DNA of 64,000 nucleotides from an uncultured Acidobacteriota bacterium (GTDB lineage: Bacteria; Acidobacteriota; Vicinamibacteria; Vicinamibacterales; CAVVIG01): NCBI GenBank assembly GCA_963729215.1, contig CAVSND010000011.1:2836-66835 (forward strand), written 5' to 3'. Each line of letters starts with the position of its first letter. The first letter of the stretch is position 1. The notes beneath the pieces are model-generated. The model did not search any database, was not told the DNA's origin, and saw nothing but the letters and a program-made list of their open reading frames with translations. A program made the translations under genes and the position numbers. Below, piece by piece: positions 9,094 through 55,912 of the stretch.

Positions 9094-10119
9094 TACGCGC
9101 CGCGCCTCCAGAGCGCGTCTTGCGTCAACGCGAGGTTCTTGCGGCGGCAGGCCGGACAGATGTCCTGATAGTGCGCGGTCGTCTCTGTCCGGTGCGCTCG
9201 ACTGTCACCGGCCGCCTCGTATCTGATTCCCAGCTCGCGCTCGACCTGCTTGAGATCGTCGATGTGCATCCGCGACGCGAACGGTTCGCCGCATCGCGCG
9301 CAGCGGGCCGCCTCGCCCTTCGCGCCGGTTTCGCGATAGAAGGCGACGCCGAGCTGCGCGGGCCGCTGGAAGATGTGGAAGAACTTGCCGAACGGCAGGT
9401 ACAGCAGGGTGAAGATCACCGTGACCGCGTGCAGCTGCGACAGGAACACGAAATGCAGCCCGCGCATCAGGTGGGTCGAGACGGTCAGGAAGACGCCGGT
9501 GATCGACACCGCGAAGAGCATCACCAGCGGCAGCAGATCAGCCCCGAACTGCTGGACCGCAAGGGCGCCGCGGTCGCTGGCGCGCCGCCACATCGCCAGG
9601 GACACGCCGATGGCCGACCATCACGAGCACGGCCGAGATGTCCAGCACGTTGAACACGAGCGGCGCAAGCGGACTCGCCAGATCGAACGTAAACACGCGC
9701 AGGCCAAAGACGAACGCCTGGTAGCGCTCCTGCGCGGCCCCCGCCGTCTCGAAATGAATCCACCCGAAGGACAGGGGGAACGTCACCGCCGCGGCGAGAA
9801 TGCAGCCCCAGAAGATGAACCAGTGTGCCGCCCACCGCAACGGCGATCGTTTCTCGATGAACCGCTGCGCGACGATGTTCACGGCGAAGAGTGCGGCGAG
9901 GCGGGAGAGGTTCTGCGCCACGCGCGAGGGCGCGAAGAACAACCGCCAGCCGCGTCGCCAGAAGAGACGCGTGGGCGGTTTCGTCAGCCACATCGAGTAG
10001 CGGTACCCGAGACCGAAGGCCGAAAACACACTGGCGCCGGCGTACGGGACAAGGGCCGCGTCGAAATCCCTGAGCCGCCGGCTGCCGAAGTAGATGCCGG
10101 CGAGGACCAGTGACGCCAT
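9093..10119 (-). CDS. NarI/HdrE/DsrM-like di-heme cytochrome b membrane subunit with C-terminal Cys4 zinc-ribbon-like tail; frameshift about 9540-9605
   Basis: '[12 protein letters not shown]...' has about 4 TM segments, then '[28 protein letters not shown]' (NarI-like His-containing helix), then 'CARCGEPF...CPACRRK'. The stop TAA overlaps the Mo-subunit ATG as TAATG. Confidence 0.55.
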
Positions 10120-21249: not shown

Positions 21250-21460
21250 CGGCGCGTCGATGATAACGCAGCGATTTCGCGTTTCACCGGCGCGCGCGAA
21301 AACCTTTTCGGGTAGTGGACAACTCTTTGGCCGATTCGGGTAAGAAAACCGTATTCAGCTAGAAAACTGGCTGGCTAGATCTTTACATGGACGAAACGTG
21401 TCTGTGAACTCGGCGATCCATCACGCCCATAAAGTGAGCGCACCAATTGGAGGCGTGAGC

Positions 21461-22898
21461 ATGAACCTACGGCACGTGACGGCGGTAGCCCTGACGATTC
21501 TGTGTGTGTCCCGGACGAGTTTCGCGGCGGAACCCGTTCTGATCGCCATCGGCAGTATCAACGGACAGTACGAAGATTTCGCGGCGGAGACGGCTGGCCG
21601 GCTGCCGAACAACGTTCCGGGCAACCGGCTTGGCGGGATTGGCTCCGGCCTCGCGCACCTCGGCGGCGACTGGTTCGTCGCGATCCCCGATCGGGGACCG
21701 AATGCCGTTCCGTACAACGCGTGCATGGACGACACCGTGTCGTACATCAACCGCTTCCACACGATGCACCTGAGCCTCTCGCCGAGCGACCCGGGTTCGG
21801 CGCTGCCGTTCACGCTGACGCCCATGCTGGCCGCGACGACGCTGCTGTCGAGCCGGGCTCCGCTCGTCTACGGCGCCGGCTGCGGCACCCAGGGGAGCGG
21901 CGTGCCCGCCCTGAACGCCATCGATCACACGCACTACTTCACGGGGCGCTCCGACAACTTCGACGCGTCGAAGCTGTCCACGAACCCGCGCGATGCCCGG
22001 CTGGATGCGGAAGGCATCCGCGTGTCGAACGACCGGCGCAGCGTCTACATCTCCGACGAGTACGGCCCGTACGTCTACGAGTTCAACCGCTTCACCGGTG
22101 AACGTGTCCGCGTGTTCGCGCTGCCGGATAAATTCGCGATCAGCAACCTGAGCGCCGCGAGCAACGACGAGATTACGGGGAACACCTCCGGCCGCGTGAC
22201 CAACAAGGGCATGGAGGGTCTCGCGATCACGCCGGATGGCCGGACGCTGGTCGGCGCGATGCAGAGCCCGCTGATTCAGGACGGCGGCGACGTGAAGGGC
22301 GGCATCACGCGCATCGTCACGATCGACATCAGGACGGGGAAGACCCACGAGTACCACGTACCAGCTCGATACGGGCACCAAGACCACCATCAGCGAGATC
22401 CTGGCCATCAACGACCACCAGTTCCTGGTGGACGAACGCGACAGCAAGGGGCGCGCGGACGCGGTCGGGTCGAAGGCGGCGTTCAAGAAGCTCTTCATCG
22501 TGGACATTGAGTTCGCCCACGACGTCAGCGGCCTGACAGGCGCCGCGGCGCTCGCGCCCAACACCCTGCCCAAGACGCTGTTCCTGGACATCGTAAACGG
22601 CCTGAAAATCGCCCCCGCCAGCCTCGACCCGACGCAGATTCCGGCCAAGCTCGAGGGGATCGCGTTCGGAGAGGATATTACCTACACGGATCCGGCGACG
22701 AAACAGGCCGTGACCAGACACACGTTGTTCGTGTCCAACGACAACGACTTCCTCGCGACATTTGAAGGCCAGGACAACCCGAACCAGTTTTTCGTGTTCG
22801 CGTTCGACGATGCGGACCTGCCCGACTTCGTGCCGCAGCGGTTCCACCAGGATCGTGAGGACGACGATCACGACGGCCACGATCACGACGGCCGGTAG
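21461..22898 (+). CDS. secreted 'esterase-like activity of phytase' family protein with C-terminal His/Asp-rich tail; 1-nt frameshift about 22348
   Basis: Signal peptide 'MNLRHVTAVALTILCVSRTSFA'. '...DIRTGKTHEY | TYQLDTGTKTTISEILAINDHQFLVDERDSKG...' joins the ORFs 21398-22510 and 22428-22898. Confidence 0.5.
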
Positions 22899-33355: not shown

Positions 33356-33470
33356 ATCTGGTCATCTGGTCATCTAGTCATTTGGTCATCGTTTGGAAAT
33401 TTGGCAATTTCTCAATTGAACAACGATGACCAGATGACTAAATGACTAGATGACCAGATGATTGGGGTTC
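33356..33470. repeat. octamer-built palindromic element, copy 1 (arms of 4x ATYTRGTC + ATCGTT around a TTGGCAATTTCTCAATTGA core)
   Basis: 'atctggtcatctggtcatctagtcatttggtcatcgtt tggaaatttggcaatttctcaattgaac aacgatgaccagatgactaaatgactagatgaccagat'. Starts 1 nt after the AhpD-like TGA; the AmpG stop lies inside the right arm. Confidence 0.7.
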
Positions 33471-34706
33471 GCCCCGCCACGGCGCGACCTTGAAGAGCAG
33501 CAGCATGCCGGGAACCGCCAGCGCCGCGCACAGGAAGAAAAATCCCATCCATCCCAGCGTGTCCACCAGCCAGCCGGTGGCGGCATTGGCGAACGTGCGC
33601 GGCACGACCGCGAGGCTGGTGAACAGGGCGTACTGGGTGGCCGTGTAGCCGGGGTGGGTGGCGCGCGCGATGAACGCGCCCGAGGCGGCCGCGCCCAGGC
33701 CGACACCCAGCGCCTCGAGGCCAATCACGATGGCGAGCCGGGTGAGGTCCACGCTGGTGATCTCGGTGTGGGGCCCGGCGGCGGCCAGCCACGCGAAGCC
33801 GAAGATGGAGAACACCTGGACGAAGCCGAACAGCCACAGGGCCTTGTTCACGCCGATCTTCACCATCCACAGGCCGCCGAGCAGGCCGCCGACGACCGAC
33901 GGCCACAGGCCGGCGTTCTTGGCGACGAGCCCGATCTGGGTTTTGGAAAAGCCCATGTCGAGATAGAACGGCGTCGCAAGCGCCGTGCACATGCTGTCGC
34001 CGAGCTTGTAGAACAGCAGAAACGTCAGGATCAGCAGCGCATTGCTCCATCCCTTCCGGTTGATGAATTCATGGAACGGCTCGACCACCGCCTCGCGCAG
34101 CGTCCGGGGCGGCGCGGCGCGGTGCGGCTCCCGGACCAGCAGGGTCATGACCATGCCGGGCACCATGAACAACGCGGTCACCGCGAACACCACGCTCCAC
34201 GGCAGGATGTCGGCGAGCACCAGCGAGAGCGACGCCGGCACGAGCCCCGCGATGCGATAGGCGTTGATGTGGACGGCCGTGCCCAGGCCGAGCTCGTTAT
34301 CCGCCAGCAACTCCCGGCGATAGGCGTCGAGCGCGATGTCCTGGGTGGCGGAGAGAAACGCCAGCAGCGTCGCGACCAGCACGATGGCGCGCAACTCGGT
34401 CTGCGGCGAGAGCCCTCCGAGCGCGGCGATCGTCACGAGCAGCCCCACCTGAGTCAGCAGCATCCAGCCGCGCCGCCGCCCCAGCACGGGCAGGGCATAC
34501 CGGTCCACCAGCGGCGCCCAGAGAAATTTCCAGGTGTACGGGAACTGGATCAGCGTCAACAGGCCGATCACCCTCAGGTCGATGTGTTCGGTGCGCAGCC
34601 ACGCGGGAACGAGCGTGAGCAGCAGGTACAGCGGCAGGCCGGAGGCAAAGCCGGTGAACACGCAGATCAGCATGCGGCGGGTGAAGAGTTGCCGCCAGAC
34701 GGTCAC
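33438..34706 (-). CDS. AmpG-family MFS transporter (muropeptide permease-like)
   Basis: 422-aa single frame, 12+ TM, 'DAYRRE' and 'YKLGD' AmpG-type motifs. The last residues ('...SSGHLVI') are encoded by the repeat element. Confidence 0.65.
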   Translation of the reverse strand: MTVWRQLFTRRMLICVFTGFASGLPLYLLLTLVPAWLRTEHIDLRVIGLLTLIQFPYTWKFLWAPLVDRYALPVLGRRRGWMLLTQVGLLVTIAALGGLSPQTELRAIVLVATLLAFLSATQDIALDAYRRELLADNELGLGTAVHINAYRIAGLVPASLSLVLADILPWSVVFAVTALFMVPGMVMTLLVREPHRAAPPRTLREAVVEPFHEFINRKGWSNALLILTFLLFYKLGDSMCTALATPFYLDMGFSKTQIGLVAKNAGLWPSVVGGLLGGLWMVKIGVNKALWLFGFVQVFSIFGFAWLAAAGPHTEITSVDLTRLAIVIGLEALGVGLGAAASGAFIARATHPGYTATQYALFTSLAVVPRTFANAATGWLVDTLGWMGFFFLCAALAVPGMLLLFKVAPWRGEPQSSGHLVI

Positions 34707-34794
34707 AGTCGTTGCTCCAGATGGGCACCCGGGATGCGCGTCACGCGCCTCGCAGTTCCGGGGGATTCTATCAGGCCGCGGAAGAGTGCGGCTT

Positions 34795-34878
34795 GAAACG
34801 TAGAACTGTAAAACGGAAAACGCAAAACGTAGAACTTCCTGAGTCCTTCTTCGTTTTACGTTCTACGTTTTACGTTCC
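34795..34878. repeat. hairpin element of tandem AAAACGN heptamers (arms 'cgtaaaacggaaaacgcaaaacgtagaac' / 'cgttttacgttctacgttttacg')
   Basis: Shares the 19-mer AAAACGCAAAACGTAGAAC with the element at 19036-19110. Lies between the VWA gene stop and the AmpG promoter. Confidence 0.5.
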
Positions 34879-41181: not shown

Positions 41182-41517
41182 TTAACCGAGAATCTCGTTC
41201 AGCCCGTCCAGGACGCGCGCCAGTTCTTCCTCGGAAGCACGCGCCACCCTGGCGCCGACCCGATCGACAGAGAGCGTCCGGATTTGACTAATCTTGATCC
41301 ATGAGCGCTTCCTCAGACCAAGGGCTCGACTCTCCAGCGTCAGAGGAAATCCAGCGCGGGGTTCCTGGCTCGTCAGCGCGACGGCGATCACCGTGCCTGA
41401 GCGTTCGTTGAACACATCATGGCTGAGGACCAGTACGGGACGCCGACCGGATTGCTCGTGGCCGCGAACCGGTTTCAACTCTGCCCAGCGAACCTCGCCT
41501 CTCAGTATTCTGGCCAT
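41182..41517 (-). CDS. MazF/PemK-family type II toxin (mRNA interferase)
   Basis: 'RGEVRWAELKPVRGHEQSGRRPVLVLSHDVFNERSGTVIAVALTS' PemK fold. Overlaps the upstream antitoxin by 16 nt. Confidence 0.8.
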   Translation of the reverse strand: MARILRGEVRWAELKPVRGHEQSGRRPVLVLSHDVFNERSGTVIAVALTSQEPRAGFPLTLESRALGLRKRSWIKISQIRTLSVDRVGARVARASEEELARVLDGLNEILG

Positions 41518-41744
41518 GACGCGAAGTCGTCAGCCAGACCTTCATCGGCGAGCCGTTTTTCCTCGCGCGGATTCAGGTTGGCGGATTCGCGGGCAAGCCG
41601 GGTCCGGGCGAGCCGTTGAAGCTTGTCAGCGAGCGCGGCTTCGATGGCCTGGCTTCGATTCCTGAACCGTTGACGGTCCACGAGTTCATCGAGGCGTTGC
41701 AGAAGGGCGCTGTCCAATGTCAGAGCGACTTTTGTCTTGGGCAT
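41502..41744 (-). CDS. ribbon-helix-helix (CopG/MazE-like) antitoxin
   Basis: 'KTKVALTLDSALLQRLDELVDRQRFRNRSQAIEAAL' RHH motif. Confidence 0.7.
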   Translation of the reverse strand: MPKTKVALTLDSALLQRLDELVDRQRFRNRSQAIEAALADKLQRLARTRLARESANLNPREEKRLADEGLADDFASWPEY

Positions 41745-41858
41745 CGTCGGTATGATGAATCATCATACCAAGGGCGTGCACTGCCCCGGCAGGCTCACTC
41801 GGCGTTATGTTGCCCCTGGGTGTCGCATCGCATCCGGCAACGAGAGTGACAGGCTGGC

Positions 41859-44800
41859 TTACTTGGTCGCCTCGGCCGGCTCCAGCGCCGCCGCCTGCTG
41901 ACGGCTCTTCAGCCACGCCTGCACCTGCGCCATGTAGGTGTAGAACACCGGCGTCAGATACAGCGTCACGAGCTGTGAAAACAGCAGCCCGCCGACCACG
42001 ACCAGGCCGAGCGGCTGCCTGGCCTCGCCGCCCGCGCCGTACCCGAGCGCGATCGGCACGGCGCCGAGCAGCGCCGCCATCGTCGTCATCATGATCGGCC
42101 GGAAGCGGATCAGGCAGCCCTGGTAGATGGCCTGCTCGGGCGTGCTGCCCTGGCGCTCGGCGTCGAGCGCGAAGTCGATCTGCATGATCGCGTTCTTCTC
42201 GACGATGCCGATCAGCATGATCATGCCGACGAAGGCGTAGATGTTGAGATCCATCCCGAACAGGACGAGCGTCAGCAGCGCGCCGAAGCCGGCCGAGGGC
42301 AGGCCGGAGAGAATCGTCAGCGGGTGGATGTAGCTCTCGTAGAGGATGCCCAGCACGATGTAGACGACCATGATGGCGATCACGAGGAGCACGGCGAGGT
42401 TCGACAGCGAGTTCTGGAACGCCTTGGCCGCGCCCTGGAACTGGCCGCTGACGCCTTCGGGGAGCGTGGCCGTGGCCACGGTGCGCACGCGGCTCAGCAC
42501 GTCGCCGAGCGACGCGCCGGGCGCGAGACCGAACGAGATGGTGACCGCCGGCAGCTGGCCGTAGTGGTTCACGGTCTGCGGGCCGATGACCTGCGTGGCG
42601 CGGGCCAGCGTGTCGAGCGGCACGACGATGCCGGCCGATCCGCTCGGGCCGTTGGCGCCCGTGCCGCCGTTGCCGGCAGCAGCGGCCGCATTGATGGCCG
42701 CCGCCGTCCCGGGGGCCGGCGTGGCCTTGAAGTAGAGGAGCGAGAGCGCCGCCGGGTCGGACTGGTACTGCTCGGCGAGCTCGAGCAGGACCTTGTACTC
42801 GTTGACCGGCGCGTAGATCGTGGACACCCAGCGCGGACCGTACGCGTCGTAGAACGCGTTCTCGATGGCGTTCGCCGTGATGCCGAGCGCCGCCGCCTTG
42901 TCGCGATCGATCTCGACGTTCACCTGCGGGCTCGTGACCTGGAGGTCGCTCGTCAGATCGGCGAGGCCTTCCACGTCCGCCAGCGCCTTCATCAGCGTGC
43001 GCGACGCCGCGTAGAGCGCCTCGCGGTCCGGCGACTGCATCGAGGACCTGATACAGGCTCTTGCTCACCTGGCCGCCGATGCGGATGGTCGGCGGGTTCT
43101 GCACGAACGTGTGCATGCCGACGACCGTCGCCAGCTGCGGCCGCAGCTTCTCGATGATCTGGTTGGCCAGCTCCTTCCGCTCGCTGCGCGGCTTGAGGTG
43201 GACGACGATCTGGCCGAGGTTGGGACCGCCAAGCGTGTTCGATGCGCTGCCGCCAATCGTCGAGACGAGCGCCTCGACGTTCGGATCGTTGCGGATGATG
43301 TTCGCCACCTCGCCCTGGTATTCGACGAGCTTGTCGTAGGACGTGCCCTGCGCGGCCTCCGTCGTCACCGCCAGCTGGTCCGTGTCCTGATCGGGAATGA
43401 ACCCCTTCGGGACGTAGACGAACAGCGCGCCCGTGAGGACCAGGAGGACGATGGACGCCGCCATCGTGGCGCCGCGATGCCTCAGCACGATCTGAAGTGT
43501 CCGGTCGTAGCTGGCCAGCAGGCTCGCGAACGCGCGTTCGGTCGCCACCGCGAACCGCGAACCGCCCTCGTGCCCGGGTGCCGCGTGTCCGCCTTTTTCA
43601 TCCGCGTTGTGCGCATGCTTGGGCTTCTTGAGGAAGCGGCTGCAGAGCATGGGCGTGAGCGTCACCGAGACGACGCCAGAAATCAGGATGGCGACGCAGA
43701 TCGTGACCGAGAACTCACGGAACAGCCGGCCGAGCACGCCGCCCATGAAGAGGACGGGGATGAACACGGCCGCCAGCGACAGCGTCATCGACACGATCGT
43801 GAACCCGATTTCGCGCGACCCGACGAGCGACGCGGTGAGCGGGTCTTCACCCATTTCGACGTGCCGGTAGATGTTCTCGAGCATCACGATCGCGTCGTCC
43901 ACGACGAAGCCGACCGAGAGAATGAGCGCCATCATCGACAGGTTGTCGAGGCTGTACCCGAGCATGTACATGACCGCGAACGTGCCGATGATCGAGAAGG
44001 GCAGCGCGAGGCTGGGAATGACGGTCGCCCACACGTTCCGCAGGAACACGAAGATGACCATGATCACGAGCGCGAGCGTGAGCGCCATGGTGATCTGCAC
44101 GTCCGATGACGATTCGCGGATCGTGTCCGACCGATCGTAGAGGACGTCCATGTGCACGCTGGTCGGCAGCTCCATCTGGAACTGGGGCAGCAGGGCCTTG
44201 ACGGCGTCGGCCACGGCGATGGTGTTGGTCCCGGGCTGCCGCTGGATGCCGAGCGTGATGCCGCGCCGTTCGTCGTCCCGCGTGTAGTACCACGACGCCG
44301 TCCGCTGATCCTCGACGCCGTCGATGACGGCGCCGAGCTCGCGCAGCCGCACCGGCGCGCCATTGCGGTACGAGACGATCATGTCCTTGTACTGCTCGGC
44401 GTTCATCAGCTGGCCGGTCGCCTGCAGCGTGAAGGACTTGTGCGGCCCGACCAGCGTGCCGCTGGGCACGTTGCTGTTCCAGTTCCGCAGCTGCGTCTCG
44501 ACTTCGTTGATGCCGATCTGGCGTGACGCCAGCGCGTGCGGGTCGAGCTGCACGTGCACGGCGTATTTCTGGCTGCCGAGCACCTGGACCTGCGCCACGC
44601 CGTTGACCATCGAGATGCGCTGCGCGATGCGCGTCTGCGCGTACTCGTCGAGCGTCCACGGCGGCAGCGTCGTCGAGGTGATGACGAGGTAGAGGACGGG
44701 CTGATCCGCCGGGTTGACCTTGGTGAAGGTCGGCGGCGTCGGCATGCCCTGCGGCAGCAGGCGCGAGGCCTGCGTGATCGCCGACTGCACGTCGATGGAG

Positions 44801-45111
44801 GCGCCGTCGAGGCTCCGGTTCAGGTCGAACTCGAGCGTGACGAGCGTCGAGCCGAGCGAGTTCACCGACGTCATCGACTCGAGGCCGGCGATCATCGAAA
44901 ACTGGTTCTCGAGCGGCGTCGCGACGGACGCGCCCATCGTCTCGGGGCTGGCGCCGGGCAGCTGCGCCGTGACGAGGAGCGTCGGGAAATCGACGTTGGG
45001 GAGGTCGCTGACCGGGAGCGATCGATACGCCACCAGGCCGAAAAGCGCGATCGCCGCCATGAGGAGGCTGGTGGCGATCGGCCGCTTGATAAATCCTTCG
45101 GAAATGTTCAT
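41859..45111 (-). CDS. RND efflux permease (AcrB/MdtB/MdtC-like), paralog 1; frameshift about 43045
   Basis: 'MNISEGFIKRPIATSLLMAAIALFG...' about 690 aa, then the C-terminal half in ORF 41859-43040 ('...FALDAERQGSTPEQAIYQGCLIRFRPIMMTTMAALLG'). Its ATG overlaps the paralog-2 stop (ATGA). Confidence 0.85.
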
Positions 45112-48100
45112 ACGGTAACCGGGTCAGACGCCGACCTTGCGGCGATTTTGCTCGTGCGGAAAACTTGCGCCATGTACGTGTAGACGACGGGCGTGAGATA
45201 GAGCGTCAGCATCTGCGAGACGATGAGGCCGCCGACGACGGCGAGCCCCAGCGGCCGCCGCGCTTCGCCGCCCGCGCCGAAGCCGAGCGCAATCGGCACG
45301 GCGCCGAGCAGCGCGGCCATCGTCGTCATCATGATGGGCCGGAAGCGGACGAGGCAGCCTTCGTAGATCGCCTCGGTGGGCGTCATCGCCTGCTTGCGTT
45401 CGGCCTCGAGGGCGAAGTCGATCTGCATGATCGCGTTCTTCTTGACGATCCCGATCAGCATGATGAGGCCGACAAAGGAGTAGATGTTCAGCTCGTTGCC
45501 GAACAGCCAGAGCGTGACGAGGGCGCCGAGGCCGGCCGATGGCAGGCCCGAAAGAATCGTGATCGGGTGGATGTAGCTCTCGTACAGCGCGCCGAGCACG
45601 ATGTACACCACGCCGATGGCCACGAAGAGCAGCAGGCTGAGGTTCTTCGTGGATTCCTGGAAGACCTTGGCCGACCCTTCGAAATTGATCGTCACCGTCG
45701 CGGGCAGCACCTGGCCCGCCACGTCCTTGATGCGGTCGACGGCGGCGCCGAGCGACACGCCGGGCCGCAGCCCGAACGAGACGGACACCGACGGCAGCTG
45801 CCCCGAGTGGTTGATGCTCTGGGGACCGACCGTCTCCTGCCGGGACGCCACGGTCTCGAGCGGCACCAGCGTCCCGCGCGGCGTCTTGAACGAGATCTTC
45901 TCGAGCGAGTCGGCGTACTGCTGGTACTTCGGATCCAGCTCGACGAGCACGCGGTACTGCGTGGCGTCGCCGTAAATCGTGGACGACCACTTCGGGCCGA
46001 ACCCGATCGAGAGCACGTTCGTGATTTGCGTCGCGTTGAGCCCGACGGCGGCGGCCTTGTCGCGATCGATGATCAGGTTGACCTTCGGGCTCCGGATCTC
46101 CAGGTCGTTCGACACGTCCTGGATTTCCGCGATGCCCTGCATGGCCGTGCTCAGGCGGCGCGCCTGGGCATAGAGCTCGTCGGTGTCCGGGCTCCGCACC
46201 GTGACGTTGTACGAGCTGTTGCCCACACGCGCGCCGATGTTGAGAGACGAAGGCAGGTTCACGAACACGTTGTAGTTCGGAAAGCTCAGGAGCTGGCGCC
46301 GCAGCTGCTGCGAGATCTGCTGCGCGGACTGGGGACGCGTCGCGCGCGGCGTCAGGTTCACCTGGAGCTGCGCGGTGTTCTGGGACCCGCCGTACCCGCT
46401 GCCGCCGCCGCCGGTCCGGACCATGAAGCTGTCGATGTACGGATTCTTGCGGACGATCTCGGCCACCTTCTGCGCCGCCGCGGACATCTCGTAGAACGAC
46501 GTGCCCTGCGCCGCCCGGATGTTGATGTTCATCGAGTCGTTGTCCTGGTCGGGGATGAACCCCTTCGGGACCACGCCGTACATGTGGACCGTGGCGGCCA
46601 GGACGACGACGAACACGCCCAGCATCACCACCCGGTGGCGGAGGACGGCGCCGAGGCTCCACTTGTAGCCGTCGAACACCGCGTCGAACGCGCGATCGAG
46701 CAGCCCGGCCAGGCCGCGCTTGGTGTGCACGACGCGCAGGAAGCGGCTGCACAGCATCGGCGTCAGCGTGATCGACACGACGCCGGAAATGAGAATCGCC
46801 GCCGTGATCGTGACGGCGAACTCGCGGAACAGCCGGCCCAGGATGCCGGCCATGAACAGGATCGGGATGAACACGGCCGCGAGCGACGTGGTCATCGTGA
46901 GGATCGTGAAGCCGATTTCCTTCGATCCGTTGAGCGACGCCGTCAGCCGATCCTCGCCGGCCTCGATGTGGCGCACGATGTTCTCGAGCATCACGATCGC
47001 ATCGTCCACGACGAAGCCGATGCACAGGATGAGCGCCATCATCGACAGGTTGTTGAGGCTGAAGCCGAGCAGCTGCATGACGGCGAACGTGCCGAAGATC
47101 GAAAACGGCAGGGCCAGCGCGGGGATGATGGTGGCCGACCCGTTGTGGAGGAACAGGAAGATCACGGCCACGACCAGCACCAGCGTGATCATCATCGTCC
47201 ACTGGATGTCCTTGAACGCCGCCCGGATGGTCTTCGACCGGTCGCCGCGCACGAGCATGTGAATCGACGGCGGCAGCTGCGCGTTGAGCGCCGGGAGCAG
47301 CCTGAGGGCGGCGTCGGTCACCTCGATCGTGTTCACGCCCGGCTGCCGCTTGAGCGCCAGGTTGATGGCGCGCTGCCCGCCTTCGCGCGTGTAGAACCAC
47401 GTCGCGTTCATCGTGTCTTCGATGCTGTCGACCACGTTGGCGACCTGTTCGAGCCGCACGGGCTTGCCCTGCCGGTACGTCACGATGATCGGCTTGAACT
47501 GGGCCGCGTTGTTCAGCTGGCCGCCGGCCTTGATGTTGAACGTCTGGTGCGCGCCGAACAGCTGCCCGGTGGGCAGGTTGACGTTCCAGTTCTGCAGCGC
47601 CTGATCGACCTCGTTGATGCCGATCTGCTGCGTGCGCAGCCGGTCCGGATCGACCTGCACGCGCACCGCGTACTTCGCCTGGCCCCAGACCTCCACCTTC
47701 GCCACGCCGTTCACCATCGACAGGCGCGGCGCGACCACCGTTTCGGCGAAGTCGTCGAGCACCGACATCGGCACGGTGTTCGAGATCAGCGCGAGCTGCA
47801 GGATGTCCTGATCGGCGGGGTTCTGTTTGCGGAAGGTCGGCGGCGACGGCATGCCCGCCGGCAGCAGCGGCATGGCTTCGGCAATGGCGGTCTGGACGTC
47901 GACCGCGGCGCTGTCCATCGATCGCGCGAGGTCGAACTGCAGCGTGACCTGGCTGCTGCCCGTGCCGCTCTGCGAGATCATCGAGTCCACGCCCGCGATG
48001 CTGGTGAACTGCCGCTCCAGCGGGCTCGCGACAGACGACGCCATCGTGCCGGGATCGGCGCCGGGCAGGCCCGCCTGCACCTGGATGGTGGGGAAGTCCA

Positions 48101-48218
48101 CCGTCGGCAGGTCGCTCACCGGCAGCGCCCGGTACGCGACGATGCCGAACATGGCGATGGCCGCCATGAGGAGGCTCGTGGCGATCGGCCGCCTGATGAA
48201 TCCTTCGGAAATGTTCAC
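45108..48218 (-). CDS. RND efflux permease, paralog 2 (intact)
   Basis: Single 1036-aa frame. Likely GTG start at 'VNISEGFIRRP' (48218), by comparison with paralogs 1 and 3, rather than the MMM codons at 48242. Confidence 0.9.
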   Translation of the reverse strand: MNISEGFIRRPIATSLLMAAIAMFGIVAYRALPVSDLPTVDFPTIQVQAGLPGADPGTMASSVASPLERQFTSIAGVDSMISQSGTGSSQVTLQFDLARSMDSAAVDVQTAIAEAMPLLPAGMPSPPTFRKQNPADQDILQLALISNTVPMSVLDDFAETVVAPRLSMVNGVAKVEVWGQAKYAVRVQVDPDRLRTQQIGINEVDQALQNWNVNLPTGQLFGAHQTFNIKAGGQLNNAAQFKPIIVTYRQGKPVRLEQVANVVDSIEDTMNATWFYTREGGQRAINLALKRQPGVNTIEVTDAALRLLPALNAQLPPSIHMLVRGDRSKTIRAAFKDIQWTMMITLVLVVAVIFLFLHNGSATIIPALALPFSIFGTFAVMQLLGFSLNNLSMMALILCIGFVVDDAIVMLENIVRHIEAGEDRLTASLNGSKEIGFTILTMTTSLAAVFIPILFMAGILGRLFREFAVTITAAILISGVVSITLTPMLCSRFLRVVHTKRGLAGLLDRAFDAVFDGYKWSLGAVLRHRVVMLGVFVVVLAATVHMYGVVPKGFIPDQDNDSMNINIRAAQGTSFYEMSAAAQKVAEIVRKNPYIDSFMVRTGGGGSGYGGSQNTAQLQVNLTPRATRPQSAQQISQQLRRQLLSFPNYNVFVNLPSSLNIGARVGNSSYNVTVRSPDTDELYAQARRLSTAMQGIAEIQDVSNDLEIRSPKVNLIIDRDKAAAVGLNATQITNVLSIGFGPKWSSTIYGDATQYRVLVELDPKYQQYADSLEKISFKTPRGTLVPLETVASRQETVGPQSINHSGQLPSVSVSFGLRPGVSLGAAVDRIKDVAGQVLPATVTINFEGSAKVFQESTKNLSLLLFVAIGVVYIVLGALYESYIHPITILSGLPSAGLGALVTLWLFGNELNIYSFVGLIMLIGIVKKNAIMQIDFALEAERKQAMTPTEAIYEGCLVRFRPIMMTTMAALLGAVPIALGFGAGGEARRPLGLAVVGGLIVSQMLTLYLTPVVYTYMAQVFRTSKIAARSASDPVTV

Positions 48219-48236
48219 GAGCCCGAGTTCCTTCAT

Positions 48237-48345
48237 CATCATCTGGTCGTCTGGTCATCTGGTCATCTGGTCATCGTCGATCGATTGCTGAATTGTTCAA
48301 TTGAACAGCGATGACCAGATGACCAGATGACTAAATGACCAGATA
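48237..48345. repeat. octamer-built palindromic element, copy 2, intercistronic within the RND operon
   Basis: 'atctggtcgtctggtcatctggtcatctggtcatcgtcg atcgattgctgaattgttcaattgaaca gcgatgaccagatgaccagatgactaaatgaccagat'. Lies between the paralog-3 TAA and the paralog-2 start. The loop contains the 14-nt perfect palindrome TGTTCAATTGAACA. Confidence 0.7.
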
Positions 48346-51300
48346 TTAAGCCGTGACCGGTTTTGCGGCCGCCGTCCCGCGAATCTTGCTCGTCCGGAAC
48401 ATCTGCGCCATGTAGGTGTAGACGACCGGCGTCAGGTAGAGCGTCAGTAACTGGGAGAAGATGAGGCCGCCCACGACCGCCAGGCCCAGCGGCCGCCGCG
48501 CTTCGCCGCCCGCCCCGAACCCGGCCGCGATCGGCAGCCCGCCGAGCAGCGCGGCCATCGTCGTCATCATGATGGGCCGGAAGCGGACGAGGCAGCCCTC
48601 GTAGATCGCCTCGGCCGGCGTCATCCCGAGCTTGCGCTCGGCGTCGAGCGCGAAGTCGATCTGCATGATCGCGTTCTTCTTGACGATCCCGATCAGCATG
48701 ACAAGACCCACGAACGAGTAGATGTTCAGCTCGTTGCCGAACAGCCACAGCGTGACGAGGGCGCCGAGGCCGGCCGACGGCAGGCCCGAGAGAATGGTGA
48801 TCGGGTGAATGTAGCTCTGGTACAGCGCGCCCAGGACGATGTAGACGACGCCGATCGCGACAAACAGCAGCATGCCGAGGTTCTTGGTGGACTCCTGGAA
48901 GACCTTGGCCGAACCTTCGAAGCCGACGTTGACGGTCGCCGGCAGCAGTCCCGCTGCGAGCTGGCGGATGCGATCGACGGCGGCGCCGAGCGACACGCCG
49001 GGCCGCAGCCCGAACGAGATGTTCACCGACGGCAGCTGCCCGAAGTGGTTGACGCTTTGCGGGCCGACGGTTTCCTTCGTCGACACGACGGACGGCAGCG
49101 GAATGAGCGCGCCGCGCGGCGTCTTGAAGGTGAGCTTGTCGAGCGAATCGGCGTACTCCTGGTACTTGGGATCGAGCTCGAGCAGCACGCGGTACTGCGT
49201 CGTGTCGCCGTAGATCGTGGACGACCACTTCGGGCCGAAGCCCGCGGAGAGCGCGTTCTCGATTTGGGTGGCGTTGAGGCCGACGGCGGCCGCCTTGTCG
49301 CGATCGATGACCAGGCTCACCTTCGGGCTCTTGATCTCGAGGTTGTTCGAGACGTCCTGGATCTCCGGGATCCGCGTCTCCATCGCCGCGCTCAGCCGGT
49401 CCGCCCAGGTGTAGAGCTGATCCGTGTCGGCGCTTTGCACCGTCACGTTGTAGCTGCTGTTGCCCTGGCCGAAGCCGATCTGCAGCGCCGGCGGGATCCG
49501 GACGAACGCGCGGAAGTTCGGGAACCGCAGCAGCTGCGGCCGGAGCTGCTGCGCGATCTGCTGCGCCGAGACCGGACGCTGCGCCCGCGGCACGAGCTGG
49601 ATCGGCATCTGAAAGTTCGAGCTCCCGCCGCCGTTGTAGTTGTTGCCGCCGAGGTTCATCACGAAGCTGTCCACGTATGGGTTCTTCCGGATGATCTCGG
49701 CCGCGCGCAGCCCGCCGGCGGCCATGTCGTAGAACGAGGTGCCCTGCGCCGCGCTCATGTTGACGAAGAGCATGTCGTTGTCCTGGTCCGGGATGAAGCC
49801 CTTGGGCACGATGCCGTACATGCGGACCGTGCCCGCCAGCACCCCCACGAACACGAAGACCATCGCGATGCGGTGGCGCAGCACGATGCCCGAGGCTCCA
49901 CTTGTAGCCGTCGAACACCGCGTCGAACGCGCGATCGAGCAGCCCGGCCAGGCCGCGCTTGGTATGCACGACGCGCAGGAAGCGGCTGCACAGCATCGGC
50001 GTCAGCGTGATCGACACGACGCCGGAAATGAGAATCGCCGCCGTGATCGTGACGGCGAACTCGCGGAACAGCCGGCCCAGGATGCCCGCCATGAACAGGA
50101 TCGGGATGAACACGGCGGCGAGCGACGTGGTCATCGTCAGGATCGTGAAGCCGATCTCCTTCGATCCGTTGAGCGACGCCGTCAGCCGATCCTCGCCGGC
50201 CTCGATGTGGCGCACGATGTTCTCGAGCATCACGATCGCATCGTCTACGACGAAGCCGATCGAGAGGATGAGCGCCATCATCGAAAGGTTGTTCAGGCTG
50301 AAGCCGAGCAGCTGCATGACGGCGAACGTGCCGAGGATGGAGAACGGCAGCGCCAGCGCCGGGATGAGCGTCGCCGACCCGTTGTGGAGGAATGCGTAGA
50401 TCACGCCGACCACGAGCACCAGCGTGATGAGCATCGTCCACTGGATATCGGCGAACGCCTTGCGGATGGTGCGCGAACGATCCTGGCGAATCAACAAGTG
50501 CGCAGACGGGGGCAGCTGCGCTTCGAGCGCCGGCAGCACGGCGCGCACCGCGTCGGTCACCTGGATGATGTTGATGCCGGGCTGCCGCTGGACGCCCATG
50601 TTGATGGCGCGGCGGCCGCCCTCGCGCGTGTAGAACCACGCGGCCGACCGCGTGTTCTCGACGCTGTCGAGCACCGTCGCCACCTGGTCGAGCCGGACCG
50701 GCCGCCCCTGGCGGTACGCGACGACGATCGACCGGAACTGCGCGGCGTTGTTCAGCTGGCCGCCCGCCTTGAGGTTGAACGTCTGGTGCGCGCCGAACAG
50801 CTGCCCGGTGGGCAGGTTGACGTTCCAGTTCTGCAGCGCCTGATCGACTTCGTTGATGCCGATCTGCTGCGCGCGCAGCTTGTCGGGATCCACCTGCACG
50901 CGTACCGCGTACTTCTGCGCGCCGTTCACCTGCACCTGCGACACGCCGCTCACCATCGAGATGCGCGGGGCCAGGACCGTCTCCGCGTAGTCGTCGAGCA
51001 GCGACATCGACAGGCTGTTCGACGTCAGGCTCAGCTGCATGATGTCCTGATCGGCGGGGTTCTGCTTGCGGAACGTCGGCGGATTCGGCATGCCCGCCGG
51101 CAGCAGCGGCATCACTTCGGAGAGCGCCGTCTGGACGTCGACGACCGCGCTGTCGATCGAGCGCCCGAGGTCGAACTGCAGCGTGACGTTGCTGCTGCCG
51201 GTGCTGCTCTGCGAGGTCATCGAGTCGATGCCCGCGATCGTCGTGAGCTGCCGCTCGATCGGGCTGGCGACCGCCGCGGCCATCGTGCCGGGATCGCCGC

Positions 51301-51457
51301 CCGGGAGTCCCGCCTGGATCTGAATCGTCGGGGAATCCACCGCCGGCAGGTCGCTCACCGGCAGCGCGCGGTAGGCGACGATGCCGAACATGGCGATGGC
51401 CGCCATCAGGAGGCTGGTGGCGATCGGGCGCCGGATGAAGAGTTCGGAGACGTTCAT
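48346..51457 (-). CDS. RND efflux permease, paralog 3; frameshift about 49885
   Basis: 'MNVSELFIRRPIATSLLMAAIAMFG...DGYKWSLG' then the C-terminal half in ORF 48346-49884. A stretch of several hundred nt around 49890-50390 is nearly identical to 46650-47150 of paralog 2. Confidence 0.85.
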
Positions 51458-51472
51458 GGACGTCTGCCTCGC

Positions 51473-52813
51473 CTACTCGCCGCGGCGTCCGCGTGCGGCC
51501 TGTCCCTGCGCGTCGCCGTTTTGCCCGCTCTGTCCGGTCTGCCCGTTCTGCTGTCCCTGTCCCTGTCCGCGTCCGCCGCCGCGGCGCCCGCCGCCGCCCC
51601 GTCCGTCGCCGGTCTGGATCTTCGTGCCCGCCTCGAGCCGCAGCTGGCCCTCGGTGACAACCGTCTGCCCCGACTGCAGGCCCTTTTCCACCACCACGTC
51701 GTCGCCCATGCGCTGGCCGATCGTGACGGGCTGCTGGGCCACCGTGTTGTCCGGCTTGACGAGGAAGACGAACTGGCCTTCCTGCCCGGTCTGGACCGCC
51801 TGGCTCGGAAGCACCATCGCGTTGGAAATCGTGGACACGCGCAGGCTCACGCGCGCGAACTGGCCCGGCCACAGCCGGCGATCGTGGTTCTCGAAGCGCG
51901 CCTTCAGCTTGATCGTGTCCGTCGAGGCGTCGATGACGTTGTCGATGAAATTCAGATCGCCTTCGACGACGTTCGCCGTCGAATCCTGCGACGTCGCGGT
52001 GACCGGAATCTTCGTCTTGCCGAGATTGTTCTTGATGGACGCGAGGTTCGCCGCCGGGATCGAGAACGTGACGAAGATGGGCTCGACCTGCGCGATCGTC
52101 GTCAGCTCGGTCTGGTTGGCCGTCACGAGACCGCCGACCTTGACCGCGATGTTGCTGCTGTGTCCGTCGATCGGCGACGTGATGCTCGTGTACCCGAGCT
52201 GCAGGCGCGCGTTGTCCACCATCGCCTGCTGCGCGACGAGCTGCGCTTTCGCGCTTTCGACCGCGGCGCGGTCCGCCTTGATGGTGCCGGCGCTGGTGTC
52301 CGCGGCCGCGCGCGCCTGTTCGGCGACGTCCTTGGAGACGATCCCTTTTTCGGCGAGCTGCGCCTGCCGCTGCGCCGTGAGCGTCGCGTATTCGGACTGC
52401 GAGCCATCACGCCCAAGCTGGGCTTCGGCCTGGCTGAGCAGCGCCTGGTCGCGCACCAGGTTGGCTTCGGCCTGCCTGAGGGCGGCCTCGAACGGCCGCT
52501 TGTCGATGGTGAAGAGCAGCTGATCTTTCTTGACGAAGTCGCCCTCGTGAAACGTCGCCGACTCGATGGTGCCGGTCACCTGCGACCGGACCGAAATCAT
52601 GGTGTACGCTTCGACGTTGCCGATGGCGGCGATGTCGACGGGGACGTCGCGCTGCACGACCTTGGTGGTGACGACCGGCACGGCGCCGCCTTCACCGCCG
52701 CGGCCACGGCCCCGGCCGCCGCCCCCGCCGGAGGTAGCCGCCGAGTCCGAGCAGGCGGCCGTGACGGCGAGCACGCCGAGACCGAAAAGAACGATGAACG
52801 AACGTGTCTGCAC
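51473..52813 (-). CDS. RND efflux membrane fusion (periplasmic adaptor, HlyD-family) protein
   Basis: Lipoprotein-like signal ('LAVTAACSDS'), coiled-coil, beta-barrel and MP domains. Gly/Gln-rich low-complexity C-terminus. Confidence 0.85.
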   Translation of the reverse strand: MQTRSFIVLFGLGVLAVTAACSDSAATSGGGGGRGRGRGGEGGAVPVVTTKVVQRDVPVDIAAIGNVEAYTMISVRSQVTGTIESATFHEGDFVKKDQLLFTIDKRPFEAALRQAEANLVRDQALLSQAEAQLGRDGSQSEYATLTAQRQAQLAEKGIVSKDVAEQARAAADTSAGTIKADRAAVESAKAQLVAQQAMVDNARLQLGYTSITSPIDGHSSNIAVKVGGLVTANQTELTTIAQVEPIFVTFSIPAANLASIKNNLGKTKIPVTATSQDSTANVVEGDLNFIDNVIDASTDTIKLKARFENHDRRLWPGQFARVSLRVSTISNAMVLPSQAVQTGQEGQFVFLVKPDNTVAQQPVTIGQRMGDDVVVEKGLQSGQTVVTEGQLRLEAGTKIQTGDGRGGGGRRGGGRGQGQGQQNGQTGQSGQNGDAQGQAARGRRGE

Positions 52814-52969
52814 CGATGAACTCCAGGCGGAAGTCGGGTCGGGATGGATCCGGCTGAGAACGCAGTCTCCTGCCCGCGCTTTATCGCTATCTACAATACG
52901 TGCCCGGCGCGCATACCATTTACGAGGGGTTTTCCTATCGTTTCCTCAGGAATCAGGGTCGCTTTCGCC

Positions 52970-53819
52970 ATGACTTCGCAGGTCCGCCCGCTCGAGGCGG
53001 AAACGGACGCCACGCAGGCCCTTGAAGCCGGCCACGTGCTCTGGTCGCAGGCCCCCTTGTTCGCGCTGACGGTGCCGGAGCGCCCGCTATTGTCGTCCTC
53101 TGTGCTGGCAAGAGGCAAGAACGTCAGCTTCGATCCGGCCACCGGGGCGGTGGGCGGGAGCGCCCTGACCGGCGAGGCCGCCGGAAGCCTCAAAAGCATG
53201 CTGGCGCGGTTCAGCGACGAGGCGCTGGCGCTGGTGGGACGGGTCTTTCCGGGGTATCGCCAGCGGGTCGAGCGCAGGCGGACGAGCTTCCGCCCGATCG
53301 AGGTCGCGGGACGCGCTTCGTCCTGGCGGCAGGACGACACGCGCCTGCACCTCGACAGCTTTCCGGCGTCGCCCGTGCGGGGAGCAGCGCATCCTGCGCG
53401 TCTTCGCCAACGTGAACCCGGAAGGCCGCCCGCGATCGTGGCGGATTGGGGAGGACTTCGAGGCCGTGGGCCGGCGGTTCGCGCCGAGGCTCCGGATGCC
53501 CGCGCCCGGAAGCGCGCTGCTGCTCCGGGCGTTCGGGATCACGAAGTCGCGCCGCTCGGCCTACGACTCGATGATGCTGCAGCTGCACGATCTGATGAAG
53601 GCCGACAACGCGTATCAGCAGGACGCGCCGCAGACCGCGTTCGACTTCCCGGCGGGATCGACGTGGATGGCGTTCACCGACCAGGTGAGCCACGCCGCGA
53701 TGGCCGGCCAGTACCAGCTCGAACAGACTTTTCTGCTGCCCGTCGACGCAATGCGCGAGCCCGGGCGATCGCCGCTGCAGAATTCTCGAACGCTTGCTGG
53801 AACGGGCCCACTCCTGTAG
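52970..53819 (+). CDS. Kdo hydroxylase (KdoO)-like Fe(II)/2-oxoglutarate dioxygenase; frameshift about 53378
   Basis: 'TRLHLDSFPASPVRG | EQRILRVFANVNPEGRPRSWRIGEDFEAV' matches the KdoO 'RLHVDAFP...RILRVFTNVNP' signature. Confidence 0.5.
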
Positions 53820-53820
53820 A

Positions 53821-53925
53821 TCTGGTCATCTGGTCATTTAGTCATCTGGTCATCGTTGGTCAATTGAGAAATTGCCAGATTGACAAACGATGACCAGATG
53901 ACCAGATGACCAAATGACCAGATTC
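53821..53925. repeat. octamer-built palindromic element, copy 3 (core in opposite orientation to copy 1)
   Basis: 'atctggtcatctggtcatttagtcatctggtcatcgtt ggtcaattgagaaattgccagattgaca aacgatgaccagatgaccagatgaccaaatgaccagat'. Lies between convergent stop codons (53819 and 53933). Confidence 0.7.
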
Positions 53926-53932
53926 GCTATTT

Positions 53933-54528
53933 CAGTATGGTGGCCGTCACCTCGACGGTGACCTTCCGGTCGCTGACCGGATCGGTCGCCTGCGTGGCGA
54001 CGAGCGGCTTGCCGCTGTCGAGGATCAGGACGAAGTTCTGCTTGATGTCGGTGACTGGATCGGTTGCCGGCTTCGCGGCTCTGCGCCGACTGGTACTGGA
54101 TGGTGCACTGCAGCCGGATCTTGCCGTTCGCCAGGATGGTGGGGTAGGCGTCGAAGTTCAACGGGATCAAGTTGGGTGGAACCGTCGCGACCTCGCGCAC
54201 CGAGCCGTTGAAACCGTCGCCGGCGACGGCCGAGACGCTTTTCCTGATCGGCGGGCCGCCGCCGCCGTCCTCGGTGATGTTCAGGTCCACTTTTACGTTG
54301 ATCGACTGCCGCGCCGCAGGCGGCGCAGGCGGTGCGGGAGGAGCCGGCGGCGGCGGGGGCGGCGCCTGGGCGGCTGGCGCGGCCGGGGCCGGCGGCGCCG
54401 CGCGGTGCCGGTTGGGGCGCACGCGGTGCCGTCTGGGCAAACACATGACCGGCGGCGAACACGAACGCCGCCAACAGCACGACTCTGGTTCTCATCATCG
54501 GTTCTCTCCGTGAACTTCCAACTTCCAA
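53933..54528 (-). CDS. small secreted Pro/Ala-rich protein with conserved C-terminal domain; two frameshifts (about 54420 and about 54098)
   Basis: Signal peptide 'MMRTRVVLLAAFVFAAGHVFAQ'. 'APPPPPPAPPAPPAPP...INVKVDLNITEDGGGGPPIRKSV...ILANGKIRLQCTIQYQ' then '...DPVTDIKQNFVLILDSGKPLVATQATDPVSDRKVTVEVTATILK*'. Confidence 0.4.
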
Positions 54529-54600: not shown

Positions 54601-55152
54601 CTAACTCGATCCGATCGATCGCGATAGTCGAGATCTCGATCGGCATCACGACCACGAGCGGCGAAACGTTGACCGGTTCCAGGACGATGGGCGCCAGCGG
54701 CCCGAGGTCCGGGCTCGCTGGCCGCGCGGCCGCGGGAGGTTTCCCCAGCGCAGCGGACGCGGTCCGCGGTGCCGTGCCGGGTGCCGCCCCCTTGAGGCCC
54801 GTAATGGACGTAACGGCACGTAACGGCAGCAGCGCCTTCGTCTGCGGGGCCGCCGCGATTTCGCGGCCCGCCTCCGGATTCGTTTGGACCGTCTGCGCCG
54901 GCGTCGGCGCCGGATTCTCCCGTGCGACGAACACGGCCAGCGCCAGCAGCACGCGGCCGCCGCCGGCGCCAGCAGCCACACCCACGGCCACGTGCGCCTC
55001 TCGCCGTCTGCGTCGATGCGCGCCGACACCCGCCGCGCGAGCCCGGCGTCCACGGGCGCGCTCGTCATCTCGCGAGCGATGTCGTTTATCACCGGGTCGA
55101 TCGCCGGGTCTGTCGCCGCGTCGATATCGAATTCTTTACTCATCGTGTCCAT
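54587..55152 (-). CDS. membrane-anchored anti-sigma factor; frameshift about 54960
   Basis: Start overlaps the ECF sigma 3' end by 17 nt. 'ERRTWPWVWLLAPAAAA' TM segment, then Pro/Ala-rich periplasmic region in the second frame (54587-54991). Confidence 0.5.
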
Positions 55153-55711
55153 GCGTGCGCAGCGACGCGCGGACGGCCCGCCGCGCCTCCGACACGCGCC
55201 ATTTGATCGTCCCGGCCGGCGCGTCGAGCATCGCCCCCATCTCGTCGTAGCTGTACTCGCCGCTCTGCGCGAGCAGCAGCGCGTCGCGCAGTTTTGGCGG
55301 CAGCGCCGCGATGGCCTGCCGGATGCCGCTCCGCAGCTGGCCGCCGGCGGCGAGTTCCTCCGGCGTCGCGGGCGGCGGCGGGCTGAAGCCGGACGCGCTC
55401 ACGGCGCGCGTGTCCGCGTCCCCAACCGGCACGATCCGCTGCCACCAGCGCGCGGCCGCGCGCCTGCGATTGATAGCCTGGTTCCACGCGATCGTCAGCA
55501 GCCATGTCTTGAAGCTCGCCGCGCCCCGGAAGCTCTTGAGCCGCCGGTACGCCAGCAGGAACGCCTCCTGCGCCACATCGTCGGCATCGGCTGTCGAGCC
55601 GGTGGCCGCGAGGGCGGCCCTGTAAACGGCGGCCTGATGCCTGACGACCAGCTCGCCGAATGCGGCGGTGTCGCCTTCGCGGGCTCGGGCGACCAGGTCG
55701 TCGTCGGTCAC
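55136..55711 (-). CDS. ECF (RpoE-like) sigma-70 family sigma factor, intact
   Basis: Region 2 'AFLLAYRRLKSFRGAASFKTWLLTIAWNQAINRRR'; region 4 'LPPKLRDALLLAQSGEYSYDEMGAMLDAPAGTIKWRVSEAR'. Confidence 0.85.
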   Translation of the reverse strand: MTDDDLVARAREGDTAAFGELVVRHQAAVYRAALAATGSTADADDVAQEAFLLAYRRLKSFRGAASFKTWLLTIAWNQAINRRRAAARWWQRIVPVGDADTRAVSASGFSPPPPATPEELAAGGQLRSGIRQAIAALPPKLRDALLLAQSGEYSYDEMGAMLDAPAGTIKWRVSEARRAVRASLRTHGHDE

Positions 55712-55812: not shown

Positions 55813-55814
55813 GC

Positions 55815-55912
55815 ACCCGGTCATCTGGTCATCTGGTCATCTGGTCAATTTGAAATTGCCAAATCGACAAACGATGACCAGACGACCGGATGACCAAACG
55901 ACCGGATTCGCG
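55815..55912. repeat. octamer-built palindromic element, copy 4 (more degenerate arms)
   Basis: 'ccggtcatctggtcatctggtcatctggtcaa tttgaaattgccaaatcgac aaacgatgaccagacgaccggatgaccaaacgaccgg'. Immediately after the cytochrome c peroxidase stop. Confidence 0.6.

Follow-up and report, generated by a model that had tools for sequence, protein, structure and literature searches.

The question raised by this locus is how a single efflux operon came to hold three permease genes behind one adaptor gene. The window, meaning the whole stretch of 64,000 nucleotides that was analyzed, belongs to an uncultured soil Acidobacteriota bacterium of the Vicinamibacterales (assembly GCA_963729215.1, contig CAVSND010000011.1, positions 2,836 to 66,835). 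It has a GC content of 66%. Its minus strand carries a gene for a membrane fusion protein (MFP) followed by three genes for resistance-nodulation-division (RND) permeases, designated P3, P2, and P1, all in the same orientation. In evolutionary terms the locus is an ordinary elaboration of the two-permease MdtABC design of drug-efflux-type pumps, a variant with three permeases that is specific to its lineage. The reading considered probable is that of an MdtABC/MuxABC-like pump operon in which the first permease gene (X) was duplicated to give P3 and P2, with a conversion tract between the copies, an inserted palindrome and frameshifts that are artefactual.

Operon organization and gene identities

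The four genes of the operon are as follows.

51473..52813, minus strand: MFP, periplasmic adaptor lipoprotein gene, matched by TIGR01730 and HlyD profiles
48346..51457, minus strand: P3, RND permease paralog 3, frame broken near 49891, PF00873 score of 980 bits once corrected
45108..48218, minus strand: P2, RND permease paralog 2, intact, PF00873 score of 997 bits
41859..45111, minus strand: P1, RND permease paralog 1, frame broken at ~43044-43048, PF00873 score of 993 bits once corrected

The MFP gene starts with GTG and the encoded signal peptide closes with a lipobox cysteine. The protein scored 249 bits against the adaptor profile TIGR01730 (RND_mfp), well above the cutoff of 94.9, and also matched Pfam HlyD_D23 and HlyD_3. 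Against the MdtA/MuxA profile NF008589 it scored 243 bits, under the cutoff of 391, and its identity to Escherichia coli MdtA was 34%. Gly/Arg-rich low complexity was visible in the MFP past the lipobox (GGGGGRGRGRGGEGG) and again at the C terminus (GRGGGGRRGGGRGQGQGQQNGQ...), and past approximately residue 401 the C-terminal tail was unalignable with relatives.

PF00873 (ACR_tran) matches covered positions 2-1019 of 1021 in P2 and, after correction of one base each, in P3 and P1 (cutoff 28). P2 also scored 1135 bits against NF033617. A gap of 15 nt separates the MFP stop from the P3 start. P2 ends and P1 begins within the shared sequence ATGA at 45111-45108, where the ATG of P1 lies over the TGA of P2 as read directly from the sequence. 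P2 most likely starts at the GTG at 48218 (MNISEGFI, with AAGGA before it), as its orthologues do; an ATG at 48242 falls within a palindrome. No outer-membrane factor (OMF) gene was found beside the operon in the window or in the related loci L002-L005, and the outer-membrane channel for the pump would be encoded elsewhere.

A preliminary description of this DNA had proposed the minus-strand order MFP, P3, P2, P1 with its coordinates, and the profile matches agree with it. The ATGA coupling of P2 and P1, the lack of an adjacent OMF gene (the flanks are a toxin-antitoxin pair and a Kdo hydroxylase gene) and the palindrome between the P3 stop and the P2 start (48239-48344) were likewise recovered. 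The frame breaks in P3 and P1 and the GTG start of P2 had been overlooked.

Distribution and origin of the three-permease layout

The nearest loci in a species-level genome collection were in Vicinamibacterales/Acidobacteriota metagenome-assembled genomes. The order MFP-P3-P2-P1, with each permease in a single frame, was found in L003 and L004 (long-read assemblies) and in L001 (MEGAHIT). At least four further cases were found in short-read soil metagenome contigs of the Joint Genome Institute (JGI; L081, L088, L089, and L091). A two-permease form, with the MFP and two permeases as in MdtABC/MuxABC, was present at approximately 45 of 78 genome loci, L002 included.

P3 and P2 each formed a clade with 100% bootstrap support in neighbor-joining (NJ) trees, and the two clades were sisters. 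The single first permease of L002 lay outside both. Because of this branching, the trees point to one tandem duplication of the first permease which predates the divergence of these species. Two loci, L083 (5872-13499) and L084 (273-7787), held only the MFP, a P3-type permease, and P1, and their P3-type permeases nested within the P3 clade (100 and 99%). A chimeric origin of this single permease was considered and rejected, as it was P3-type over its full length in both. Since these genes are P3-type throughout and lie inside the P3 clade, P2 was lost secondarily, at least two times.

The usual acidobacterial form is first permease X followed by P1, and an ancestor of the clade would have undergone tandem duplication of X to P3 and P2. 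The probable cause was unequal recombination of adjacent permease genes at their near-identical 5' ends. No description of three permease genes behind one adaptor was found in literature searches on tandem or heterotrimeric RND permeases. A phylogenetic paper on MdtABC does not mention Acidobacteria and records a third MdtC-like gene in one species, where it is unlinked.

The intercistronic palindrome

The spacer between P3 and P2 holds one of four copies of a palindromic repeat in the window. None is assigned to a strand.

33356..33461: palindromic repeat copy 1, overlapping the 3' end of the minus-strand open reading frame (ORF) 33438..34862
48239..48344: palindromic repeat copy 2 of 4, inverted repeat I2, in the P3-P2 spacer
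53820..53923: palindromic repeat copy 3, between the Kdo hydroxylase gene and a hypothetical gene, which converge on it
55814..55907: palindromic repeat copy 4, ~12 nt past the stop of a cytochrome-c-peroxidase-like gene

The palindrome is approximately 105 nt long. Each arm consists of four tandem ATCTGGTC-like octamers and the loop is AT-rich. The arms of copy 2 (48241-48287 and 48298-48344) are 47 nt long and 85% complementary. Copy 2 begins 1 nt past the P3 TAA (48348-48346) and ends approximately 20 nt ahead of the P2 GTG, just before AAGGA. Its RNA fold was predicted at -74 kcal/mol (z = -8). The arm motif occurred 19 times in the window and 0 times in shuffled sequences. All four copies in the 64 kb lie 0-12 nt from a stop codon. 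Copy 3 is kept at the orthologous site in L003 and L001. Copies of the octamer family were also located at 4507-4610 in L003, 4458-4536 in L001, 13130-13265 in L014, 3389-3428 in L134, and 9953-9992 in L004. Related octamer arrays follow the first permease gene in L134, in L004, and, as a full palindrome, in L014.

The palindrome resembles repetitive extragenic palindromic (REP) elements, bacterial interspersed mosaic elements (BIMEs), REPINs, and miniature inverted-repeat transposable elements (MITEs) in being a dispersed extragenic hairpin repeat which lies just past stops or between cistrons and varies between relatives. Classical REPs are imperfect palindromes of 20-40 nt with a conserved GTAG or CGTC 5' tetranucleotide (PMC3733652). 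By comparison the present element is ~105 nt long, has the ends ATCTGGTC...GACCAGAT without a GTAG/CGTC tag, is built of four tandem non-palindromic octamers per arm and has no obvious target-site duplication. No Rfam family matched the palindromes at gathering score, the only hits being sub-threshold microRNA-hairpin look-alikes. Among the window ORFs examined, none stood out as a RAYT or transposase gene, no systematic scan being made. The palindrome belongs to a dispersed repeat family that appears to be undescribed, analogous to REP/REPIN/MITE and distinct from a classical REP.

The P3-P2 junction varies widely among relatives. L003 has an ATGA overlap without the element, L004 has a single arm only, L001, L081, and L088 have unrelated spacers, and L089 and L091 have degenerate TGGTCA repeats. 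This patchy presence shows that the palindrome is dispensable for the operon. Where a relative has translational coupling, the window has the palindrome, a very stable mRNA hairpin beside the P3 stop, which probably shifts the relative expression of MFP-P3 and P2-P1. By analogy with REPs, loss of coupling, a hairpin in the ribosome footprint at the P3 stop and possibly a barrier to 3' exonucleases are plausible effects. When a REP of E. coli lies less than 16 nt from a stop codon, translation of the upstream gene is lowered (PMC12306157). The preliminary description had pointed out that REPs in such a position modulate segmental mRNA stability in E. coli operons; the location of copy 2 fits, and a like role for it is a hypothesis. 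The distance of 1 nt from the P3 stop, the stability of the hairpin, the abutment of all four copies on stop codons, the retention of copy 3 and the arrays after first permease genes in L014, L134, and L004 would suit a selected regulator of MFP-P3 against P2-P1, acting as a REP-like stabilizer, a stop-proximal brake or an attenuator. Such a role is given tentative standing here, as the alternative to a neutral insertion, and is somewhat doubtful: the junction element is absent from L003, half-deleted in L004 and replaced by other spacers in L001, L081, and L088. The terminator scan also did not call copy 2 an intrinsic terminator; the hairpin is followed by GAUGAUGAUGAAGG and not by a U-tract. 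A sigma-70 promoter scan of 41400-54200 found none.

Frameshifts in P3 and P1

P2 has an uninterrupted frame. P3 and P1 each need one base removed. A tblastn search with P2 split P3 into 51457..49889 in one frame and 49890..48352 in another, and split P1 into 45111..43045 and then 43043..41922. In P3 the window reads CTCGGGC where eight homologues read CTC-GGC, the extra G near 49891 being unique among the 9 sequences. In P1 it reads CAGGTCC where four orthologues read CA-GTTC, a window-unique +1 insertion at ~43044-43048. A 14-kb three-way syntenic alignment contained three +1 insertions in the window and none in L003 and L004. Downstream of the shifts the ratio of nonsynonymous to synonymous divergence (dN/dS) was 0.13-0.23 (0.21-0.23 for P3 against its orthologues), similar to the upstream values, and codon bias was that of a functional gene.

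Several frames are open for kilobases in this genome. The ORFs 48263..51457 (1064 aa) and 41686..45111 (1141 aa) of the mechanical ORF list each join part of a true frame to part of a shadow frame. Over the permeases, shadow ORFs longer than 1000 aa were also seen, in alternative frames and on the antisense strand, at 45124-48258 (minus strand), 45165-48314 (plus strand), and 49739-52819 (plus strand), and are attributable to the high GC content at third codon positions (GC3). GC3 was 0.93-0.95 in the permease genes compared to 0.81-0.89 in the neighboring genes; L003, L004, and L005 gave the same picture and L002 did not. The high permease GC3 may stem from strong codon bias or from GC-biased gene conversion.

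At least three further genes in the window are split in the same way: a Kdo hydroxylase gene, a phytase-like gene, and a molybdopterin oxidoreductase gene. In the Kdo hydroxylase gene (52844-53819, plus strand) Pfam positions 4-134 and 125-272 are matched in different frames, with a window-unique +1 at ~53383 and a possible second insertion near 53777. The L003 and L004 orthologues are intact (287 aa, Pfam 4-275 of 275). The phytase-like gene (21344-22898, plus strand) matches Pfam 2-179 in one frame and 172-284 in the other. The molybdopterin-oxidoreductase/4Fe-4S gene (6246-9204, minus strand) has Molybdopterin in one frame and Molydop_binding with Fer4_11 in another, the change lying near 7600. 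The splits in these last two genes point to an indel-prone assembly. Assembly errors are quite likely to account for the P3 and P1 insertions, because these are unique to the window, are followed by no decay, have counterparts in other split genes and are missing from relatives.

The alternative is that the operon is decaying, with real +1 insertions in P3 and P1, so that this strain would have no working permease but P2, together with the MFP. Both insertions are present in the sequence as given, and that in P3 lies at the end of a tract shared with P2 (described below), where recombination-associated synthesis could be error-prone. Decay is nevertheless unlikely: the GC3 and dN/dS values past both shifts are those of maintained genes, unrelated neighboring genes hold the same type of insertion and relatives have none. 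The two sites also share no slippery or programmed-frameshift motif, which counts against decay; with other genes equally affected, it was a reason to reject programmed frameshifting as well.

Near-identical tract between P3 and P2

P3 and P2 are 83% identical overall. The maximal segment of similarity is 443 nt with 11 mismatches (97.5%), compared to 81% elsewhere, and its longest perfect run is 122 nt.

49892..50334, minus strand: conversion tract, P3 copy, 443 nt with 11 mismatches to P2
46653..47095, minus strand: conversion tract, P2 copy, counterpart of 50334..49892

The tract encodes transmembrane (TM) segments TM4-TM6, including the DD proton-relay motif (codons ~375-522). Synonymous divergence (dS) between P3 and P2 was 0.106 in the tract and 0.446 outside it. 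For the L003 pair the values over the same codons were 0.466 in the tract region and 0.529 outside. Inside the tract the window paralogs were 98-99% identical to each other and 88-93% identical to their orthologues; outside it the relation was reversed. The best P3/P2 segments of other genomes lay in the same region with 93-94% identity over ~250 nt. At sites diagnostic of P3 or P2, both window copies showed an identical mosaic of P2-type and P3-type states.

These comparisons identify the tract as the product of recent, lineage-specific ectopic gene conversion between P3 and P2, because the four-fold synonymous drop is confined to the window genome and the paralogs are closer than the orthologues inside the tract. 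More than one exchange was probably involved, with its starting point where the gene is most conserved. Assignment of a donor and direction was attempted and failed, the tract being a mosaic. With the copies 3.2 kb apart and the TM cores similar, non-allelic conversion continues, and in the lineage of the window it has recently homogenized the 443 nt encoding TM4-TM6. The pattern is that of ectopic conversion and concerted evolution of the tuf type, in which diverged tandem paralogs likewise share a short near-identical tract with lowered synonymous divergence. Beside tuf-type conversion of bacterial paralogs nothing here is unusual; donor and direction cannot be assigned.

Mis-polishing, or a repeat that was duplicated or collapsed in assembly, could also produce a third permease or a near-identical tract. 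The window has at least five single-base insertion errors, a sign of imperfect assembly, and one of them is at the edge of the tract. An artefact of this kind is very unlikely, however. The same order with orthologous P3 and P2 was found in at least seven independent assemblies, both long- and short-read, and P3 and P2 are 19% different outside the tract. A simple collapse does not fit, because residual differences remain and both genes have independent support; the 11 differences and the common P2-/P3-type mosaic are unlike such an event. Purifying selection on a conserved TM4-TM6 core would suit a region that encodes the proton-relay motif and in which P3 and P2 are most alike in L003 and L004 too (93-94%, 254 nt), yet as a substitute for conversion it is barely credible, since selection alone is insufficient where synonymous differences have been lost and would not give a four-fold dS drop in the window only, a perfect run of 122 nt or paralogs nearer to each other than to orthologues.

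The preliminary description had placed the tract at 46650-47150 and 49890-50390, which was essentially right. Of its two explanations, recent gene conversion between paralogs 2 and 3 was borne out by the dS drop and the orthologue comparison. Assembly duplication or a collapsed repeat found no support, given the orthologous P3 and P2 clades in the same order in L001, L003, L004, L081, L088, L089, and L091. Its count of three permeases with one fusion protein stands, the case of only two real genes being contradicted by these relatives.

Relationship to MdtABC and MuxABC

E. coli MdtABC and Pseudomonas aeruginosa MuxABC(-OpmB) have the layout seen here, with an MdtA-like adaptor and then tandem paralogous HAE1-type permeases. 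MdtABC also lacks an OMF gene in its operon. The difference is in number, two permease genes in MdtABC/MuxABC and three here. The system is MdtABC/MuxABC-like in architecture, with one adaptor gene and at least two paralogous permease genes in one operon. Identity of the permeases to MdtB and MdtC of E. coli was 43-45%, neither being clearly preferred. The best solved relative of P2 was MdtB 9lyq_B (E = 1e-253). P2 scored under the NCBIfam equivalog cutoffs for both MdtB/MuxB (NF007798, 1007 vs 1584) and MdtC (NF007905, 1011 vs 1774). An NJ tree with small taxon sampling made the acidobacterial X and P1 clades sisters (98%), apart from E. coli MdtB and MdtC (91%). Subunit orthology is not established, because the tree sets the acidobacterial permeases apart from MdtB and MdtC. 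One-to-one orthology with MdtB and MdtC was thus not recovered, and the pair of X and P1 may have arisen independently of MdtB/MdtC. The preliminary description had left HAE1-type or MdtB/C-like permeases to be told apart by phylogeny. They proved to be HAE1-type in an MdtABC-like layout and grouped with neither MdtB nor MdtC individually. MdtBC has been reported as a B2C heterotrimer (PMC7015380).

Permease residues and selection

The equivalents of the AcrB proton-relay residues D407, D408, K940, R971, and T978 are kept in P1, P2, P3, and their orthologues, and that of N941 is kept in all three paralogs. The equivalents of the pocket residues F178, F610, and F617 differ among P3, P2, and P1 and are kept within each orthologue group. 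This suggests that the porter domains of P3, P2, and P1 are specialized, because the pocket residues differ between paralogs but are conserved among orthologues. The dN/dS values against orthologues were 0.19-0.20 for P3, 0.11-0.15 for P2, and 0.11-0.13 for P1.

Neighboring genes

Downstream of P1 is a ribbon-helix-helix (RHH, CopG-like) antitoxin gene followed by a MazF/PemK toxin gene, with an overlap of 16 nt.

41744..41502, minus strand: RHH (CopG-like) antitoxin
41517..41182, minus strand: MazF/PemK toxin

This pair looks like a lineage-specific insertion, because L004 carries a Ser/Thr protein kinase gene in its place. Upstream of the operon the Kdo hydroxylase gene is divergent. ORFs at 54646-55711 on the minus strand read like an extracytoplasmic function (ECF) sigma factor (55711..55136) and an anti-sigma factor, and L003 and L004 have ORFs that match them in size and order. 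Arg-rich sequence suggests a wrong frame in the second half of the anti-sigma ORF and in the 3' part of ORF 53850-54446, and further indels are a possible cause.

Working model and implications

To our knowledge, no RND transporters with non-identical protomers other than the MdtB2C-type pumps have been studied well. By analogy with them, P1 would form heteromeric trimers in which P3 and P2 are its alternative or additional partners, and this would broaden the substrate range.

A number of points weigh against the reading of a duplicated MdtABC/MuxABC-like operon with artefactual frameshifts. The acidobacterial pair groups with neither MdtB nor MdtC individually, and the MdtA, MdtB, and MdtC equivalog cutoffs are missed. 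The heteromer arrangement, the likeliest one, is drawn solely from the analogy with MdtB2C (PMC7015380). P2 has been secondarily lost in two lineages, hence three permeases are not obligatory. The P3 insertion sits within the ~40-nt uncertainty of the 3' boundary of the tract and could have arisen as a genuine mutation in the course of conversion, which would make P3 a recent pseudogene. Neither reads nor an independent assembly were found for the strain of the window. Exact matching of the P2, MazF toxin, and peroxidase-like proteins gave no public contig. An exact-pattern scan of metagenome contigs for the P3 junction gave no match to either version, the one that has the extra G or the one that lacks it. 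The relatives from a second metagenome scan reached 86% identity at most and are therefore of other strains.

Two lessons of the window concern annotation. Its indel errors can masquerade as pseudogenes, and in a genome of 66% GC kilobase-long shadow ORFs hide frameshifts from an ORF-based reading. Octamer-array palindromes repeatedly adjoin stop codons, also within efflux operons.

That the pump is a heterotrimer of three different protomers, P3·P2·P1, with one specialized subunit for each position of the RND rotary cycle, is improbable. If it were so, gene conversion would preserve the match between the proton-translocating TM cores as the porter domains grow apart, and the intercistronic hairpin would tune the subunit ratios. 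The locus shows copy number changing over time, through a duplication, conversion, and two secondary losses. The three-paralog operon is a system for asking how heteromeric RND trimers assemble. It also lets the swapping of subunits for specificity be asked about, together with the constraint that concerted evolution of the TM core places on such swapping.

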